Of a stretch of 64,000 nucleotides of DNA, positions 4,178 to 30,926 are shown in pieces. The position numbers and the translations under genes are program-made. The DNA comes from Patescibacteria group bacterium (GTDB lineage Bacteria; Patescibacteriota; Minisyncoccia; Phycocordibacterales; Phycocordibacteraceae). Position 1 is the first letter of the stretch. Every line of letters begins with the position of its first letter. Location: positions 67,697-131,696 of the forward strand of contig SCTS01000005.1 in the NCBI GenBank assembly GCA_004322365.1, written 5' to 3'. The notes beneath the pieces were generated by a model, which was not told the origin of the DNA, made no database searches, and worked only from the letters and a program-made list of their open reading frames with translations.

Positions 4178-4741
4178 CTACTCCATCAATCCCTCCAGCA
4201 CTCCTTCAAGAGTGACCTTAAGAAGGAGAACAGCTCCAACAGACGGCGGAGTAGTCATTGGCTCGCCCACCTTTCGCTCTGCAAAATTTATATGAAGCTC
4301 TTTTGAATCAGAGTATATTTCGGTTGATTGGGGCGCAATTCTATCGCCAACAAGAAACGCGTTGGTAGTTTTGTATCCCGCTCCAGTTTTGAGTGCAACA
4401 ACTGCGTAGTAAAAAAGTCCACTACCTCCAGTGTCTTGCGTAACGAGAAAAGCGACATCCTCTAAGCCGTCTCCATTCAAATCACCTCTCGCTTCGTTTC
4501 CAAAATACCGTGTCGTTGTTTTTGAAGCAGAGTCTGGCACCACTGAAACTTCTGAAACTCCCTGCACTAAAACCACTTCACTTCCCTCAATCGTGAAGCT
4601 GGTGTTTTTCCCGTTGAAAGTAGCGGTCTCTTCTGAGGATATCGTAGACACTACTTTATTAGTGTCTCTTGTAAGAAAGAAAATTCCCACAATGACTACG
4701 GCGATAACGACAACAAAACTGATGAGTGTTTTTTTATTCAT
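4178..4741 (-). CDS. secreted/membrane-anchored hypothetical protein
   Basis: N-terminal signal-anchor (LISFVVVIAVVIVGIFFL) and a GDLNGDGLEDVAF (FG-GAP/VCBS-like) motif. Confidence 0.45.
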   Translation of the reverse strand: MNKKTLISFVVVIAVVIVGIFFLTRDTNKVVSTISSEETATFNGKNTSFTIEGSEVVLVQGVSEVSVVPDSASKTTTRYFGNEARGDLNGDGLEDVAFLVTQDTGGSGLFYYAVVALKTGAGYKTTNAFLVGDRIAPQSTEIYSDSKELHINFAERKVGEPMTTPPSVGAVLLLKVTLEGVLEGLME

Positions 4742-9764: not shown

Positions 9765-10490
9765 CCTTGGTTCGCAATATTCTCTTGCTTGAATTTCAAC
9801 AAGCGTACCAGAAGGCACTGAATCAAAAAGCTCTACAACATCTTTATTCTTCATTCGAATACATCCATGTGAGGCAGGGCTCCCAATAAGACCTTCCTCC
9901 TGTGTTCCATGTATATAAATATAGCGAGCGTGCGAATCAACGCCTTCTCCTTTATTTATGTTTGGTTCTTCACCTTGAAGCCACATGATGCGCGTGGTTA
10001 CTACATCTTCAGAAGTGTCGATAGGATTTTTTATGATATCAACCACACGATCAGTCTGCTCGCGTGCAACAAACACCGCTCCTTCAGGTGCTCCATCTCC
10101 TATCTTTTCTTTTATCCTGTGAGTTCCCCACGGCGTTCTCTCGCTTCCTTTTTGTGTACCGACACCATTTTTACTTGTTGATACTGGATATATTTCTATA
10201 ATCTTGTTGTTTTGTATAACATAGAGTTCCTGCTTTTCTGGATTCACGACAATGGCATTCTCCTCGGGTCGGAGTCCAAACTGCGATGTTAGTTTGTGAA
10301 GACTCTCAGTAATATCTTTTAATGCCTCTTCCTTCCGAGCGCTCTCATTTGCTGTACGCACTACTTTCTCACCAACGACTCCTACAGCAACAGCTCCAGC
10401 TGTCGCTAGACCCCAACCAAGAAACCTTCTTCTGTTAAATCCTTTCTTATCAAGAGACTCTTCACTTGGTGTAAAAGAATTTTTATCCAT
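9759..10490 (-). CDS. L,D-transpeptidase (YkuD domain) with Tat-type signal peptide
   Basis: RRRFLGWGLATAGAVAVG twin-arginine signal; catalytic HGTQEEGLIGSPASHGCIRM motif. Confidence 0.8.
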   Translation of the reverse strand: MDKNSFTPSEESLDKKGFNRRRFLGWGLATAGAVAVGVVGEKVVRTANESARKEEALKDITESLHKLTSQFGLRPEENAIVVNPEKQELYVIQNNKIIEIYPVSTSKNGVGTQKGSERTPWGTHRIKEKIGDGAPEGAVFVAREQTDRVVDIIKNPIDTSEDVVTTRIMWLQGEEPNINKGEGVDSHARYIYIHGTQEEGLIGSPASHGCIRMKNKDVVELFDSVPSGTLVEIQAREYCEPRL

Positions 10491-10499
10491 ACTATATTT

Positions 10500-11918
10500 T
10501 TACACAACCTGAATACTGCAGGTGTTTGTACTCCCTGTACTACCAAAAGGAAGTCCGGCAACCAGTATGAAGGTGTCCCCTTTCTTCGCACACTTTTGTG
10601 CAAGAAGCATTTGTTTTGCGAGCGCTATTGCATCTTCAAATTGCTTTACCCTACTTGTGTCCACAACAGGAATGACACTAAAGGAGATATTGAGTTGATG
10701 GGCAACAGCGACATGCGGAGTAAGTGCAACAATAGGAAGATGTGGTTTATGTCGAGCAAGCATGCGGGCAGTACTCCCCGTCTCAGTGAGAGCAACGATT
10801 GCCTTAGCACCAAGTAGATGTGCATCGTATGTTGCAGAGAGTGTTGTGACATCAGTCGCTGTAACTTCACTCATAGGGCGACGCTTTTCCATTGCTTCTC
10901 GGTAGAAATCGCTCGTCTCTGCCCGCATTGCAATGCTAGCCATAGTTCGAACAACAAGCGCGGGATCATCACCTACCGCAGATTCTTGCGAAAGCATCAC
11001 CGCATCAGTACCGTCAAAGACAGCATTGGCAACATCAGCAACTTCAGCTCTCGTTGGCACAGGACTCTCCGTCATTGAGTCGAGCATTTGCGTTGCGGTA
11101 ATAACCGGCTTGCCGAGCTTGCGACACATACGAATCATTCTCTTTTGAAGAAGTGGCACATCTTCTTTTGGTACTTCCACTGCTAAATCACCACGAGCAA
11201 TCATAATGCCATCGGTCACTGCGACAATCTCGTCTAAATTATCTATCGCCGCCTGCGTTTCAATTTTTGCAAAAATAAGAGCCTGACTTTTTTCCTTAAC
11301 AAGAATTTTACGGAGGTCAGTAATATCTTTTGCGGTTTGAACAAACGAAAGTGCCACCATGTCGACATTTTTGGTGAGTCCAAACGCAAGGTCACTTTTG
11401 TCTTTTGCGGTCATGGCACCAATAGGAAGCATTGCTCCGGGCACATTCACGCCCCGGCGACTTCGTATGTGACCACCCGCAACTACCTTTGTGTGAACAT
11501 CTGTTCCCTCAACCTTCACTACCTTGAGTATGTACTTACCATCTTCAAGCATAATGTTCATGCCAGCACGAACACAAGAAGGAAGAGACGAGAGACTCAC
11601 TGAAACAACCTCTTTATTCCCCACTACTTTTCGTGTGGTAATCGTAAACGCATCACCTTTCTTAAGTTCAACTGCACCTTCAGAAAAATCACCGATGCGA
11701 ATTTTAGGACCACAAAGGTCTTGAAGAATGGCAATAGGCTGGCCCGTTGAAGTGGCAGCACTCCGTGCATTATCTATCCTCTCTCCATGCTCTTGGTGGT
11801 CGCCGTGTGAAAAGTTAATGCGAGCAACATTCATTCCTGCATTGATCATGGCCTCAATGACTTTCGGGTGAGTACTCGCAGGACCAAGTGTTGCAACGAT
11901 TTTTGTTTGTTTAGTCAT
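10500..11918 (-). CDS. pyk: pyruvate kinase
   Basis: MTKQTKIVATLGPASTHPKVIEAMINAGMNVARINFSHGDH... full-length PK. The ORF-track start at 11945 was trimmed to the conserved MTKQTK. Confidence 0.9.
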   Translation of the reverse strand: MTKQTKIVATLGPASTHPKVIEAMINAGMNVARINFSHGDHQEHGERIDNARSAATSTGQPIAILQDLCGPKIRIGDFSEGAVELKKGDAFTITTRKVVGNKEVVSVSLSSLPSCVRAGMNIMLEDGKYILKVVKVEGTDVHTKVVAGGHIRSRRGVNVPGAMLPIGAMTAKDKSDLAFGLTKNVDMVALSFVQTAKDITDLRKILVKEKSQALIFAKIETQAAIDNLDEIVAVTDGIMIARGDLAVEVPKEDVPLLQKRMIRMCRKLGKPVITATQMLDSMTESPVPTRAEVADVANAVFDGTDAVMLSQESAVGDDPALVVRTMASIAMRAETSDFYREAMEKRRPMSEVTATDVTTLSATYDAHLLGAKAIVALTETGSTARMLARHKPHLPIVALTPHVAVAHQLNISFSVIPVVDTSRVKQFEDAIALAKQMLLAQKCAKKGDTFILVAGLPFGSTGSTNTCSIQVV

Positions 11919-12048
11919 GAAATGATTTTTTTTAATATACAACAAAACAACGTAACTATCTATTACTGCATACCATCTAGAAATGTATCCGAAGGTGACA
12001 TCTTTACTGAACGCGCAACAGACAAAATCACAATTTCCTCTGTATATT

Positions 12049-12097
12049 CCCCTGTATAGTATAATCTAACGGTCGTTAGATTATACTATACAGGGGG
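12049..12097. repeat. perfect ~48-bp hairpin/palindrome cccCTGTATAGTataatcTAACGgtCGTTAgattatACTATACAGggg (copy 1 of 2) in the pyk promoter region
   Basis: The two arms are exact reverse complements (23 bp each). A second copy with compensatory arm changes is at 30067-30106. Confidence 0.85.
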
Positions 12098-12122: not shown

Positions 12123-12157
12123 AAAAAACCGCCCTCTGTTTGAGGGCGGTTTTTTTC
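12123..12157. terminator. bidirectional rho-independent terminator
   Basis: aaaaaaCCGCCCTCtgtttgAGGGCGGttttttt: an 8-bp GC stem with an A-run on one side and a T-run on the other. Confidence 0.75.
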
Positions 12158-12206: not shown

Positions 12207-12779
12207 CTAGTGAGCTGTGTGGCCTGTGTAGGATTTTGCTGCGGACTGGAAATATGTTTCTCCATTGTCCGACAAATGAGCGACGAATGATTGAGCTTTA
12301 TCTTTAAGCAATCCATATGTTCCCTTAAGTCCTCCCCAGACGACACCTTGCGCAACCGCTAGAGCAAAAGCTCCTGCAATAACTGGTGTCATCAATTGTG
12401 CTCCAACTCTTCCCCATGGAGTTTGCCACTCAGAAATCTTTGATACGACACCACCCACATACATTTTCTTTGCTTTTTCCATTTCTGAAATTATAGTCGC
12501 ACCAACGCGAACTAACCAATGAAACGGTGCCAACACAACATCACCAGTTGTACCAAGCGCGCGTGCAGTACCATTTGAGAATTCATTCATTCCAAAAGAT
12601 GTCTGCTGAACATTTACTCCGCCAGTTTCTCCTGGTCTATAAACCAAATTTTGAGCCCTCCTTCCTTCGGAACCAAGATACCGCGGTATTGCAATACTTT
12701 CAGCTCGTGCGATAGGAGTCATTCTTCGTCCTCCGTACACCTCGTCATTGGCACTGTTAAATCTTTCTGGTGTAGACAT
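12207..12779 (-). CDS. hypothetical protein
   Basis: 190-aa ORF with a C-terminal hydrophobic region; no recognisable motif. Confidence 0.4.
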   Translation of the reverse strand: MSTPERFNSANDEVYGGRRMTPIARAESIAIPRYLGSEGRRAQNLVYRPGETGGVNVQQTSFGMNEFSNGTARALGTTGDVVLAPFHWLVRVGATIISEMEKAKKMYVGGVVSKISEWQTPWGRVGAQLMTPVIAGAFALAVAQGVVWGGLKGTYGLLKDKAQSFVAHLSDNGETYFQSAAKSYTGHTAH

Positions 12780-19877: not shown

Positions 19878-19919
19878 TGATTATAAAATCCCCTCTATAT
19901 AGAGGGGATTTTATAATCA
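19878..19919. terminator. 42-nt perfect palindrome TGATTATAAAATCCCCTCTAtaTAGAGGGGATTTTATAATCA immediately 3' of the tRNA (likely tRNA terminator)
   Basis: Exact 20-bp inverted repeat, seen directly. Confidence 0.6.
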
Positions 19920-19921
19920 AG

Positions 19922-20214
19922 CTCCGCGGGTAGGACTCGAACCTACAACCAACTCCTTACACGTGATCCCCTATTACGAAGGGCGTGGACTATATCATCA
20001 TCCGATCTGGATGCGAGGCGCTTCGACCTTTCGGTCTACTCCCTTTCGGGATAGTCTCTACACCTTCTCCAACAAATCGTCAGAGCTTGGCTCGGGATTG
20101 CCCATCCTTTTTATAGGATTAGGGTTTCCCCGAATTCACCTCGTTTTTCAATCCCGATTCCTCGGGAAGGCTGCCTTTGGACAGGGAGCTGCTCTACCAT
20201 TGAGCTACCGCGGA
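19922..20214 (-). tRNA. tRNA gene interrupted by a ~220-nt intervening sequence in the anticodon loop (putative group I intron). Anticodon probably GUU (Asn), alternatively UGU (Thr), depending on the splice junction.
   Basis: On the minus strand: 5' TCCGCGG-TA-GCTC-AATGGTA-GAGC-A-GCTCC-CTGT | ~221 nt | TAA-GGAGT-TGGTT-GTAGG-TTCGAGT-CCTAC-CCGCGGA-G 3'. The exon halves form a canonical cloverleaf. The intervening sequence contains P7-like AGACUA ... UAGUC elements and ends in G before the 3' exon. Confidence 0.6.
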
Positions 20215-20296
20215 ATGTACACAATCAACAGAGTTGATTGGTGATTATTATATACCCTGACTTGATGATTCAGCAAACTTAACACTAGGTGTTATA

Positions 20297-24941: not shown

Positions 24942-25112
24942 AGTCGCTCATTCACAGCGGTATAAATACGTATCAGAGTGTTTATTTTTTGTAGCATGTA
25001 TACCCCGTGAGATAACGGATCAGAGAATACGTGCCAGCGAAAATCTTGATGGGAGAAAAATTCTAATCTTTTCCACACGAACATAATATCTTATGGGGTA
25101 TACTAGCCACTC

Positions 25113-25813: not shown

Positions 25814-26380
25814 TTAATATTTTCTAATCACGCCACGCACAATTGCGGTGATAGTGAGTTCATCTTCAGGATAAATTGGCTTGTATGCGCTGTTAGCTGG
25901 TTCCAAATAAGGCTTCCCTTTTTTCATACGGAAATATTTCATCGTCCATCCGCCATCAACTTCGGCAATAACTATCTCCCCTTCTTTTGCGACAGTTGCT
26001 CGCTCTGCAATAACCATGTCACCCTCTACAATACCTGCATCTTTCATAGAGTCACCTTTCACCCGAAGTAAATATGTCTGCTCACGGTCACGGATAAGAT
26101 AGTCATCTAATGAAATACTATCAAGTACCTCCTCTTCAGCAGTTGCAGGCATGCCGGCTTCTACAAGACCTAAGATTTTTATTTCTCCCAAAACTGTTGT
26201 AGGAATGAGGCGTCCTCGGCGGTCTTTCTTCAACTGCCCTCGACGCACTAAACGCTCAACCAATTTGAATACGGAATCCTTGGAGCGGAGACCTGTGATA
26301 TCCATTATTTCCGCGTACGACGGCATGCGCCAACGAGACCTATAAAACTGAAGAATCTCTCTCAAATACGATGTATCCAT
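25814..26380 (-). CDS. lexA: LexA-family transcriptional repressor (S24 peptidase)
   Basis: N-terminal winged HTH (SYAEIMDITGLRSKDSVFKLVERLVRRG), then a cleavage site and S24 catalytic VKGDSM ... K dyad. Start trimmed to the internal MDTSYLRE. Confidence 0.8.
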   Translation of the reverse strand: MDTSYLREILQFYRSRWRMPSYAEIMDITGLRSKDSVFKLVERLVRRGQLKKDRRGRLIPTTVLGEIKILGLVEAGMPATAEEEVLDSISLDDYLIRDREQTYLLRVKGDSMKDAGIVEGDMVIAERATVAKEGEIVIAEVDGGWTMKYFRMKKGKPYLEPANSAYKPIYPEDELTITAIVRGVIRKY

Positions 26381-26448
26381 ATACTTGCAGTATAAGCGAA
26401 CGAACGTTCGCCGTGCAAGATTAGTTATCCACTCCTCCCCTAACAACC

Positions 26449-29073: not shown

Positions 29074-29955
29074 CTAAACGCTCCAGCGAGCAAATATCCC
29101 CGCGGGCAGTAACCGACTGGTGCGTGCCTCCTCAATAGTTAGTTCACCCATCTCAACATCTCCTCCGTGCTTTTCAATAATTGATTCCAAATTGTGTGCA
29201 AACGCGAGCGATGAATAACCGGCGGCATACCCACTCACTAGCATAAATAGTGGCTTGTCTGACAAAAGCGCCCGGCAGAGTTTCATAAGCATTAGAAAGT
29301 TCTCCTCAATTTTCCACAATTCATCTTTTGGTCCATGACCAAAAGCAGGAGGGTCCATAATAATCGCGTCGTAGGTATTCTTTCGTTTTACTTCCCTCTC
29401 AACAAATTTCATGACATCTTCCGTGACCCAGCGGATTGGTTTTTCATTCAAACCAGAAAGTTTTGCATTCGCCTTTGCCCATTCGATTGCTGTTTTTGAT
29501 GCATCGACATGCGTAACTTGCGCACCAGCTTTTGCGGCAGCGAGCGTTGCCCCGCCCGTGTATGCGAAGAGGTTCAGGATCTTTATAGGTTCTAGGTTCG
29601 AGGTTCTAGGTTCCAGCTTCTCGGAGATCCATTGCCAATTGGGAACCTGCTCTGGGAAAAGACCGGTGTGCTTGAAGGAAGTAGGGCGAATCAGAAAATT
29701 CAGCCCACCAAGTTCAATGTGCCACTCTTTGGGAAAATCTTTCCCTGTGTGCCAATCACCTCCTTTTGCTTTGCGCTCATACCACGCATCTGCGGATTTC
29801 CACTCGTCATCGGCAAGATGTTTCTCCCACAATGCCTGTGGGTCAGGGCGTGAAAGAACAATGTCCCCATATCTCTCAAGCTTTTCTTCTCGACCAGAGT
29901 CAAGAAGTTCGTAATCCTTAGAGGGCTTCGTCGTCAATATGCTGTGCAACATTCC
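29074..29955 (-). CDS. class I SAM-dependent rRNA methyltransferase (RlmI/RlmK-like)
   Basis: LNLFAYTGGATLAAAKAGAQVTHVDAS (motif I), IIMDPPAF (motif IV). Contains an in-frame repeat-like insertion LEPRTSNLEPIKILN. Confidence 0.7.
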   Translation of the reverse strand, partial: GMLHSILTTKPSKDYELLDSGREEKLERYGDIVLSRPDPQALWEKHLADDEWKSADAWYERKAKGGDWHTGKDFPKEWHIELGGLNFLIRPTSFKHTGLFPEQVPNWQWISEKLEPRTSNLEPIKILNLFAYTGGATLAAAKAGAQVTHVDASKTAIEWAKANAKLSGLNEKPIRWVTEDVMKFVEREVKRKNTYDAIIMDPPAFGHGPKDELWKIEENFLMLMKLCRALLSDKPLFMLVSGYAAGYSSLAFAHNLESIIEKHGGDVEMGELTIEEARTSRLLPAGIFARWSV

Positions 29956-30066
29956 CTCCATGCTACCGCATGAACGCACCAATGGGTAGACATCTGGAAA
30001 TAATTAAATAAAAAAACATATACATATGAGTAGGATGTTTTGCCTCCTCATACGCACATAACATTC

Positions 30067-30106
30067 TGTATAGTTTAATTTAACGGTCGTTAACTTAAAC
30101 TATACA
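30067..30106. repeat. hairpin/palindrome TGTATAGTttaattTAACGgtCGTTAacttaaACTATACA (copy 2 of 2) in the divergent promoter region between the methyltransferase and ABC transporter genes
   Basis: Shares the outer CTGTATAGT/ACTATACA arms and the central TAACGGTCGTTA with the copy at 12049-12097. Inner arm positions differ but remain complementary, with one mismatch. Confidence 0.8.
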
Positions 30107-30167: not shown

Positions 30168-30926
30168 ATGAACGAACCAGCACTCAGCATAACTAACCTC
30201 ACAAAAACCTACGCGAGCGGAACGGTAGCACTTCAAGGTGTTTCTCTCACTATTCCCACGGGCGACTTCTTTGCGCTTTTAGGTCCAAACGGTGCAGGTA
30301 AAACAACCATCATTGGCATAACAACTGGCCTTGTAAACAAAACGACCGGAGAGGTAAAAATCTTTGGTGACGACATCACTACAAGTCCTGAAAAAGCAAA
30401 AACCCACATCGGGCTCGTGGGACAAGAAGTAAATTTCAATCCATTTGAAAAACCGTTCGACATTATAGTCAATCAAGCTGGGTACTATGGCATTCCCCGC
30501 TCTATTGCTATTCCACGAGCTGAAAAGCTTTTGAAAGACCTCGGTCTCTATGAAAAAAGAGACCAGCGTGCCATGACGCTTTCAGGGGGAATGAAACGCC
30601 GTTTGATGATCGCGCGTGCTCTCGTGCATGAACCAAAGTTTTTGATTCTCGATGAACCAACAGCGGGTGTTGATGTAGAACTTCGCCGTAGCATGTGGGA
30701 GTACTTAAAAGGCCTCACTGCAAAAGGGGTAACCATCCTTTTAACAACGCACTACCTTGAAGAAGCGGAGCAACTTTGCAAACATGTTGCCATCATAAAC
30801 AAAGGCTCCATTGTCGCCTCAGGAACTATGACTGAAATTCTTGCCATGCATGATGATGGCCCCAGAGACGGTGCCTACCGTGCAGGAAAACTTGAGGAAG
30901 TATTCATTAAGCTCACGCAAAATTAA
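30168..30926 (+). CDS. ABC transporter ATP-binding protein
   Basis: Walker A GPNGAGKTT, signature LSGGMKRRL, Walker B ILDEPTAGVD. Confidence 0.85.
   Translation: MNEPALSITNLTKTYASGTVALQGVSLTIPTGDFFALLGPNGAGKTTIIGITTGLVNKTTGEVKIFGDDITTSPEKAKTHIGLVGQEVNFNPFEKPFDIIVNQAGYYGIPRSIAIPRAEKLLKDLGLYEKRDQRAMTLSGGMKRRLMIARALVHEPKFLILDEPTAGVDVELRRSMWEYLKGLTAKGVTILLTTHYLEEAEQLCKHVAIINKGSIVASGTMTEILAMHDDGPRDGAYRAGKLEEVFIKLTQN

Follow-up and report, generated by a model that had tools for sequence, protein, structure and literature searches.

The palindromes of the window and their surroundings

The window analyzed here is a stretch of 64,000 nucleotides from a Patescibacteria group bacterium (contig SCTS01000005.1). 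It holds two long palindromes in intergenic regions. Copy 1 lies between pyk and an upstream gene for a 190-aa protein, and copy 2 lies between the divergently transcribed genes for a SAM-dependent methyltransferase and an ABC transporter ATPase. The window also encodes lexA. Pfam supports the gene assignments that the first-pass annotation had made for pyk, for the SAM-methyltransferase divergent from the ABC ATPase and for the S24/LexA gene. The features are as follows.

10500..11918, minus strand: pyk, pyruvate kinase, downstream of copy 1 (Pfam PF00224 (PK), E 4e-116; PF02887)
11934..11962, minus strand: putative sigma-70-like core promoter of pyk, TAGATA-17-TATATT, ~100 nt downstream of copy 1
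12049..12096, no strand: palindrome copy 1, arms 12049-12071 and 12074-12096, 23 nt each, 100% complementary, 2-nt centre GT
12123..12155, minus strand: intrinsic terminator of the upstream 190-aa gene (12207-12779), 14-bp stem, 7 GC pairs, T-run
25814-26378, minus strand: lexA, Peptidase_S24 (Pfam)
26397..26410, no strand: Cheo-type (Gram-positive-type) SOS box CGAACGAACGTTCG, 19 nt upstream of the lexA ATG (26378)
29074..29961, minus strand: SAM-dependent methyltransferase (RlmI-like), PF10672, start 105 nt from copy 2, divergent from the ABC gene
30067..30106, no strand: palindrome copy 2, arms 30067-30085 and 30088-30106, 19 nt each, 95% complementary
30168..30926, plus strand: ABC transporter ATPase, PF00005, start 61 nt from copy 2

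Copy 1 is a perfect hairpin, as had been reported, but its end had been set at 12097, one unpaired G too far; copy 2 has one mismatch. A 4-bp CCCC/GGGG clamp extends the 40-nt core of copy 1 (12053-12092) to arms of 23+23 nt. In copy 2, a T.C mismatch falls at position 13:28 of the 40-nt core and there is no clamp; neither window copy has a T-run after the stem. The outer arms and centre that the two copies had been said to share (CTGTATAGT..AAT.TAACGGTCGTTA) match exactly at both sites and nowhere else in the window, and none of 100 shuffles of the window sequence matched this pattern. Two pairs differ between the copies in a compensated way (9:32, A-T to T-A; 14:27, C-G to T-A), and the T.C at 13:28 in copy 2 is the sole uncompensated difference. 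The predicted RNA fold of copy 1 has an energy of -38.1 or -36.3 kcal/mol on the two strands (z = -8.1 and -9.7, respectively), and that of copy 2 has an energy of -15.9 or -17.1 kcal/mol (z = -6.0 and -5.5).

Both copies had been placed in promoter regions, with an RNA attenuator in the 5' leader as one possible role. Copy 2 does occupy a divergent intergenic region, whereas copy 1 lies upstream of the pyk promoter and after a terminator. The ordinary terminator at 12123-12155 is separated from copy 1 by 26 nt, and the pyk ATG lies 134 nt downstream of copy 1. Since copy 1 falls between this terminator and the putative core promoter at 11962-11934, an attenuator in the 5' leader of pyk is unlikely. 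Sigma-70 promoters have -35 and -10 hexamers with a spacing of 16-18 bp. The pyk promoter is conserved in JAGOSG01 as TGGACA-17-TATATT (pyk 92% identical), and the pyk site of that genome has no palindrome. The leaders from predicted promoter to ATG are very short and have no Shine-Dalgarno-like sequence at pyk (window 11919-11934) and at the PaaX-like gene described below (L095 9984-10000).

At the pyk site, the palindrome is present only in the window and in the closest relative found (L084 9808-9863, pyk 98% identical), where the ortholog of copy 1 has a CCCCC/GGGGG clamp. Copy 2 is the most deeply conserved copy: orthologs occupy the same methyltransferase/ABC divergent site in L027, L033/L041, L034 and L078, and the copy is kept in L093 (9894-9931), where the methyltransferase is 76% identical.

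The CGAACGAACGTTCG box upstream of lexA has no second exact match in the window, and in a relative CGAACGATCGTTCG is found within a 26-nt palindrome upstream of an S24 gene (L093 14730-14755). This box predicts what the real LexA motif of the organism would be. No copy of the 40-bp palindrome was found at lexA.

Other structured elements are found in the same window. A group I intron (Rfam RF00028, 68 bits, 19967-20245, minus strand) interrupts a tRNA-Thr(UGU) (window 19921-20245); ARAGORN with introns allowed places the tRNA-Thr(UGU) gene at ~19921-20214, and related genomes carry an intron-less tRNA-Thr(UGU) (L028, L035). Directly 3' of the intron-containing tRNA-Thr lies a perfect 42-nt palindrome (19878-19919, TGATTATAAAATCCCCTCTATA followed by TAGAGGGGATTTTATAATCA), which is unrelated in sequence to the 40-bp palindromes and is possibly the terminator of the tRNA-Thr gene. 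A second repeat consists of 17-nt inverted repeats (GTATACCCCGTGAGATA ... TATCTyATGGGGTATAC) that enclose ~80 nt (window 24998-25106 and 2636-2653; L020 5551-5675). Lone copies of it are found 7-10 nt upstream of start codons (e.g. 25090-25103, ATG 25113), and either a MITE-like element or a promoter motif that faces outward could account for it.

A dispersed, lineage-specific palindrome family

The hairpins of the window are members of a lineage-specific, dispersed family of 40-bp palindromes that belongs to a genus-level clade of Paceibacterota (Parcubacteria, CPR). The family consensus is the 40-base palindrome C-TGTATAGTATAATTTAACG-NN-CGTTAAATTATACTATACA-G, and ~90 copies are found in five or six closely related Paceibacterota genomes, at ~20-25 per 0.8 Mb. 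One genome per species was scanned with the pattern TGTATAGT-N4-8-TAAC-NNNN-GTTA-N4-8-ACTATACA. The scan gave 35 loci (including two short contigs binned elsewhere and one unrelated 38-nt match), nearly all of them from the Paceibacterota/Parcubacteria MAGs JAGOSG01, JBBAAE01 and VMHB01, with 10-14 copies each. A looser scan of metagenomes gave 48 further loci, including Ga0207952 with 21 copies on four contigs (789 kb in total). The palindrome therefore recurs both genome-wide and in relatives, and the window DNA is 80-93% identical to the genomes that carry the family. It belongs to none of these genomes and therefore derives from a congeneric CPR bacterium. The viral contigs scanned contained no match, so a phage origin is not supported. 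In the texts covered by a full-text literature search, neither the sequence nor such a CPR repeat family is described.

All copies are intergenic, and neither lone half-sites nor decayed copies were found. No copy, in the window or at 34 loci, has an Rfam match at the gathering score, and no tRNA or ncRNA adjoins the copies (ARAGORN, Rfam). By context, ~14 of 26 locus groups have tandem genes on either side, ~7 have convergent and ~5 divergent genes, counts that rest on rough in-house gene calls partly checked with Pfam. The neighbors are miscellaneous housekeeping genes (pyk, pheS, rplI, ychF, glmS, fmt, msrA, parB-like, ABC genes and similar).

Selection on arm sequence and symmetry

Compensatory changes, first noted between the two window copies, are more strongly evident in a set of 75 distinct copies. 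In this set, 97.5% of core cells are paired, and double changes occur in five core pairs and four clamp pairs. The core positions that covary with their partners are 1, 2, 9, 13 and 14; positions 1-2 can be TG, GA, GG, AG, CG or AA, each with matching partners. The covariation score is 0.182 compared to 0.072 in shuffles, of which 0/500 reach 0.182, and slid controls score at most 0.061. Outside the core, three to six more flanking bases prolong the stem as a clamp that is locus-specific and mostly G+C. Family scan and covariation together confirm a repeated palindrome whose symmetry is actively maintained.

The sequence of the arms is conserved as well. Invariant positions make up 26/38 of the arms. 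Several invariant columns of the consensus are imposed by the search patterns, but the patterns left positions 3-4 (always TA) and the centre-closing pair (always C-G) free to vary. Orthologous copies have an arm identity of 97.6% versus 79.5% in their flanks. The central dinucleotide differs in 43/82 orthologous pairs; its values are limited to AT, GT/AC and TT/AA, with a frequent flip between GGTC and GACC. Locus-specific arm variants (e.g. AAAA/TTTT, AAAG/CTTT) are kept across species, and this inheritance points to selection at each locus and not to homogenization between copies. These comparisons show that each copy is under purifying selection for arm sequence and dyad symmetry, whereas the two central bases are free.

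Related palindromes in distant relatives

A more distant Patescibacteria MAG (SCVI01, locus L089) carries a second family, (A/G)CGGTCTAGTATAAwwATGCTA/TAGCAT..., with three copies in 15 kb:

L089 4691-4734: family 2 copy, no T-run, directly after an ordinary terminator
L089 8983-9026: family 2 copy, no T-run
L089 9678-9723: family 2 copy, no T-run

Family 2 and the family of the window (family 1) match in register at 15/21 arm positions, and the block TAGTATAA is common to both in the same register from the dyad. Another relative (L094) has a third family, with which family 1 has TATAGTAT in common, in both of the arrangements present in L094. Family 3 is made up of long palindromes (L094 7694-7740 and 18995-19046) built from the word ATGGTTATAGTAT, which is arranged tail-to-tail in one and head-to-head in the other. 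The two arrangements suggest an asymmetric recognition unit that would be used as inverted pairs. Homologous yet lineage-specific families such as those of L089 and L094 are the expected outcome of co-evolution with a trans-acting factor.

Terminator-like features

In half of its copies the palindrome is terminator-like: a run of at least five T starts 2-6 nt past the core on one side in 12/23 locus groups versus 4% of control intergenic windows. The T-run lies on the sense strand after the end of a gene in ~6 groups (e.g. rplL) and in the opposite orientation in ~5-6 groups. The rplL copy and several others, at 23-80 nt past a stop codon, have a sense-strand T-run, and in a convergent group (L005, L011, L063) A- and T-tracts flank both sides. 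One subfamily has a longer asymmetric flank, tTGTTTgTACC-[core]-GGTCTTTTTT...TTTGATTTAAG.

These features would be expected of a REP-like extragenic palindrome that has no dedicated regulator, forms a hairpin in RNA or ssDNA that serves as bidirectional terminator, insulator or mRNA-end stabilizer, and spreads by duplication of a unit of ~80-90 nt. A covarying stem closed by a variable G+C clamp, the strong predicted hairpin (-36 to -38 kcal/mol for copy 1), the flank shared within the subfamily and the presence or absence of copies between species at recR, rplI and pyk all agree with this. However, structure alone leaves the 26/38 invariant arm positions and the 97.6% identity of orthologous arms unexplained, and many copies besides those of the window have no T-run, as do families 2 and 3 of the relatives. 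Copy 1 and the L089 copy at 4691-4734 each directly follow an ordinary terminator, and ~5 groups are flanked by divergent genes. The mismatches on the T-run strand (G.U 8 versus A.C 6) give no indication of which strand forms the hairpin. In about half of the tandem loci the T-run is oriented the 'wrong' way, which speaks against a simple terminator role. Taken together, we regard a REP-like palindrome as rather unlikely, though it is the main rival of the protein site discussed below.

In several genomes with the family, the intergenic regions are crowded with low-complexity, species-specific words, which are AGCT/CAGGT/CTGGCACCTGAAAGCT in some genomes and TAGGGTTTAG/CTAAACGC in others. These words form long imperfect hairpins (low-complexity hairpin regions at L002 150-300, L008 320-420, L021 5225-5400, L026 6960-7060 and L057 3560-3690), and some palindrome copies sit at the apex. 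A sigma-54 reading of the CTGGCACCTGAAAGCT words beside some copies was rejected: GG and GC stand one base too close together, and empty sites contain the words as well. Downstream of glmS, an ORF-less gap of 630-750 nt extends from the palindrome to rplU (L008 1695-2321; L057 1488-2241); at the gathering score Rfam matches nothing there, and the gap might contain an RNA gene that is not recognized.

A PaaX-like protein as candidate partner

In Ga0207952 and Ga0265292 (L059, L052, L066), a gene for a PaaX-like protein of ~190-193 aa is found between two palindrome copies. Its product contains the central Cas2-like domain of PaaX (PF20803, PaaX_M; E = 1e-19), and its best PDB match is E. coli PaaX (8A39, E = 0.0013). 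A 74%-identical homologue from another metagenome (L095/L096) is likewise bracketed by two palindrome copies. In L097/L098 the homologue is 59% identical, and the two corresponding positions on either side of it are taken by another 40-bp dyad, GGTAAA-N28-TTTACC. A pair of 40-bp dyads thus encloses the gene throughout the lineages examined; the dyads belong to family 1 in four loci and are of the other kind in L097:

L059 10069-10810: PaaX-like gene (10147-10725) and flanking family-1 dyads
L052 2316-3097: PaaX-like gene and flanking family-1 dyads
L066 1016-1759: PaaX-like gene and flanking family-1 dyads
L095 9946-10662: PaaX-like gene and flanking family-1 dyads
L097 9953-10608: PaaX-like gene and flanking GGTAAA-N28-TTTACC dyads

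The window itself contains no PaaX-like gene. Homologues number 468 at E <= 1e-10 and are widespread in Parcubacteria. In the recognition-helix region of the PaaX-like proteins, no obviously matching change was found between lineages with different dyads.

For E. coli PaaX, the operator TGATTC-N27-GAATCA has been published (PMC9493321, citing Kim et al. 2004). Within the 40-bp core of the palindrome, the invariant half-sites TATAGT/ACTATA are 24 bp apart, which fits the geometry of a PaaX-type dyad. A PaaX operator would also be expected at the regulator's own promoter, and the upstream dyad indeed ends 17 nt (L095), 45 nt (L059) or 8 nt (L097) from the ATG of the PaaX-like gene. The sites are not confined to promoters of a regulon, however, as ~7/26 groups lie between convergent genes.

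The most probable role of the palindrome

Among the readings considered, the best explanation, with a rough probability of 0.45, is that the lineage-specific palindrome family would be the recognition site of a dimeric protein, for which the PaaX-like protein is the best candidate and which would not be LexA; transcribed copies would add a termination or punctuation role. A dimeric protein site had already been proposed for the window copies and still counts among the leading readings. A trans-acting dimer, probably the PaaX-family protein with its winged-helix and Cas2-like dimerization domains, would recognize the palindrome, and copies that precede genes (copy 2 and the one at the PaaX-like gene itself, for example) would act as operators. 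A transcribed copy is predicted to fold into a hairpin of 20-25 bp, to which about half of the loci add a G+C clamp and a T-run; hairpins of the latter kind may also stop or punctuate transcription between units. The PaaX-like protein is put forward as the candidate because its own gene is bracketed by two copies and because the characterized relative from E. coli recognizes a dyad of equal size (6-N27-6).

Several observations weigh against an operator as the full account. The link to the PaaX-like protein derives from the neighborhood of one gene in three lineages, and part of that neighborhood is inherited synteny. The groups between convergent genes (~7/26) count against an operator since there is nothing to regulate there. 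An operator acting as duplex DNA leaves the variable G+C clamp, the covariation at positions that would not be contacted and the T-run unexplained; template switching that corrects palindromes could conceivably yield both clamp and covariation. Because the convergent sites, the clamp and the orientation of the T-run are poorly explained, the readings as REP-like hairpin or terminator and as selfish repeat stay alive.

A stronger form of the protein-site reading, which we consider rather doubtful, would make the truncated PaaX-like protein and the 40-bp palindromes a previously undescribed protein-repeat partnership of CPR bacteria, with ~25 palindromes that would mark the borders of transcription units. 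Bound to its operators, the small protein might then serve as a repressor or roadblock, or it might take part in processing the hairpin RNA. Co-evolution of repeat and protein would have given rise to family 1, to family 2 of L089, to family 3 of L094 and to the GGTAAA-N28-TTTACC dyads of L097. If true, the partnership would be a REP/RAYT-like or global-punctuation system on a PaaX/Cas2 fold, and the interest of the family would be clearly greater.

CPR/Patescibacteria have tiny genomes whose transcription organization is almost uncharted, and here a strongly selected, sequence-defined element punctuates ~25 intergenic regions per genome. Together with a testable candidate binding protein, this element offers a concrete handle on gene regulation or repeat biology in uncultured organisms.

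Less probable explanations

The palindrome could instead be a selfish miniature mobile element, MITE-like or REP/RAYT-like, which inserts between genes in either orientation and affects the host only incidentally. Palindromes do turn over between species whose DNA is 80-93% identical, with copies gained and lost at the recR, rplI and pyk sites: upstream of recR, L002 has a copy where three genomes have none, and upstream of rplI two genomes have one and two do not. The T-rich tail is randomly oriented relative to genes and shows no link to the replication strand as judged by GC skew (8 positive and 7 negative groups), and the split among tandem, convergent and divergent contexts is near the random intergenic expectation. 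Two copies enclose one gene, in the manner of REPs around RAYT genes, and a further repeat with inverted repeats at its ends, that of GTATACCCCGTGAGATA, is present in the same genomes. Against a mobile element, comparison of filled and empty sites at recR and rplI revealed ragged junctions with neither clean edges nor a target-site duplication. No transposase was found in any fetched locus, nor a Y1 (RAYT) transposase gene in these loci or their Pfam lists, the flanked gene being PaaX-like. A 40-bp unit with a 2-bp interior cannot synapse its own ends, and decayed copies are absent. Furthermore, orthologous copies stay near-unchanged while their flanks diverge by 20%, which argues for a function at the level of the host. 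A selfish origin is thus improbable.

Less probable still is a symmetric promoter with only a -10 element, in which TAGTWT/TATAAT in each arm faces the dyad axis and RNA polymerase would initiate bidirectionally near the centre. TAGTWT at positions 5-10 does not vary, the would-be A-11 and T-7 included, the blocks TAGTATAA and TATAGTAT recur in families 2 (in register) and 3, respectively, and some copies lie 17-25 nt from the next start codon, which leaves no room for another promoter. However, neither a TG extension nor a -35 oriented to the downstream gene is conserved in the flanks, and in roughly one copy in three the better hexamer, TATAAT, has lost A-11 or T-7. The conserved promoter of pyk downstream of copy 1 and the quarter of copies between convergent genes also speak against such a promoter, which would leave clamp, T-run and covariation unexplained.

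That the palindrome is a LexA operator of unusually wide spacing, a link drawn from the lexA gene in the window and from outer letters (CTGTATA...TATACAG) that resemble E. coli SOS half-sites, was rejected as having next to no likelihood, given that the lexA promoter, in the window as in the relative, carries an exact CGAAC-N4-GTTCG box and no palindrome, that the spacing is 34 nt and not the CTGT-N8-ACAG of the E. coli type, that positions 1-2 (the TG of CTGT) vary and covary freely, and that the ~25 sites adjoin genes outside the SOS response and in about a quarter of cases lie between convergent genes. This result removes a tempting wrong annotation, namely a LexA regulon that includes pyk.

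Comparison with known systems

LexA/SOS boxes are likewise palindromic and match the palindrome in the outer CTGT...ACAG letters, but they differ in spacing, and the outer letters are not conserved in the palindrome family. Bidirectional intrinsic terminators resemble the copies between convergent genes in the order of A-tract, G+C clamp, long stem and T-tract, and intrinsic terminators in general resemble the half of loci in which a T-run directly follows the stem. Unlike intrinsic terminators, the family has an A+T-rich stem of invariant sequence common to all copies, and many copies have no T-run, lie between divergent genes or stand beside an ordinary terminator.

The Correia elements (CREE) of Neisseria are dispersed intergenic inverted repeats whose arms begin with TATAGT and which can serve as promoter, terminator or processing hairpin. 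They are 100-150 bp long, have a TA duplication and occur in hundreds of copies. The palindrome family, in contrast, has no target-site duplication and almost no interior.

The REP/BIME repeats of proteobacteria and their RAYT proteins share more with the family. They are lineage-specific extragenic palindromes with compensatory changes in the stem, are often terminator-like and are gained and lost between relatives, and one protein gene is bracketed by the repeats. The palindromes described here differ in number, with 20-25 copies (21 per 789 kb) instead of hundreds, and in form, being perfect 19+19 palindromes with a 2-nt centre, whereas a REP is an imperfect stem with a GTAG head.

The E. 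coli PaaX operator is also a dyad of ~39-40 bp with short inverted half-sites ~24-28 bp apart. It is located at the promoter of the regulator's own or neighboring genes, and the candidate partner shares with E. coli PaaX the winged-helix and Cas2-like central domain (PF20803; 8A39). The sequences of the two dyads are unrelated, and the palindrome of CPR genomes is perfect over 40 bp, with covarying positions, and is present at ~25 sites per 0.8 Mb, some of them at the 3' ends of genes. The CPR protein also differs in having no C-terminal effector domain and no phenylacetate pathway context.
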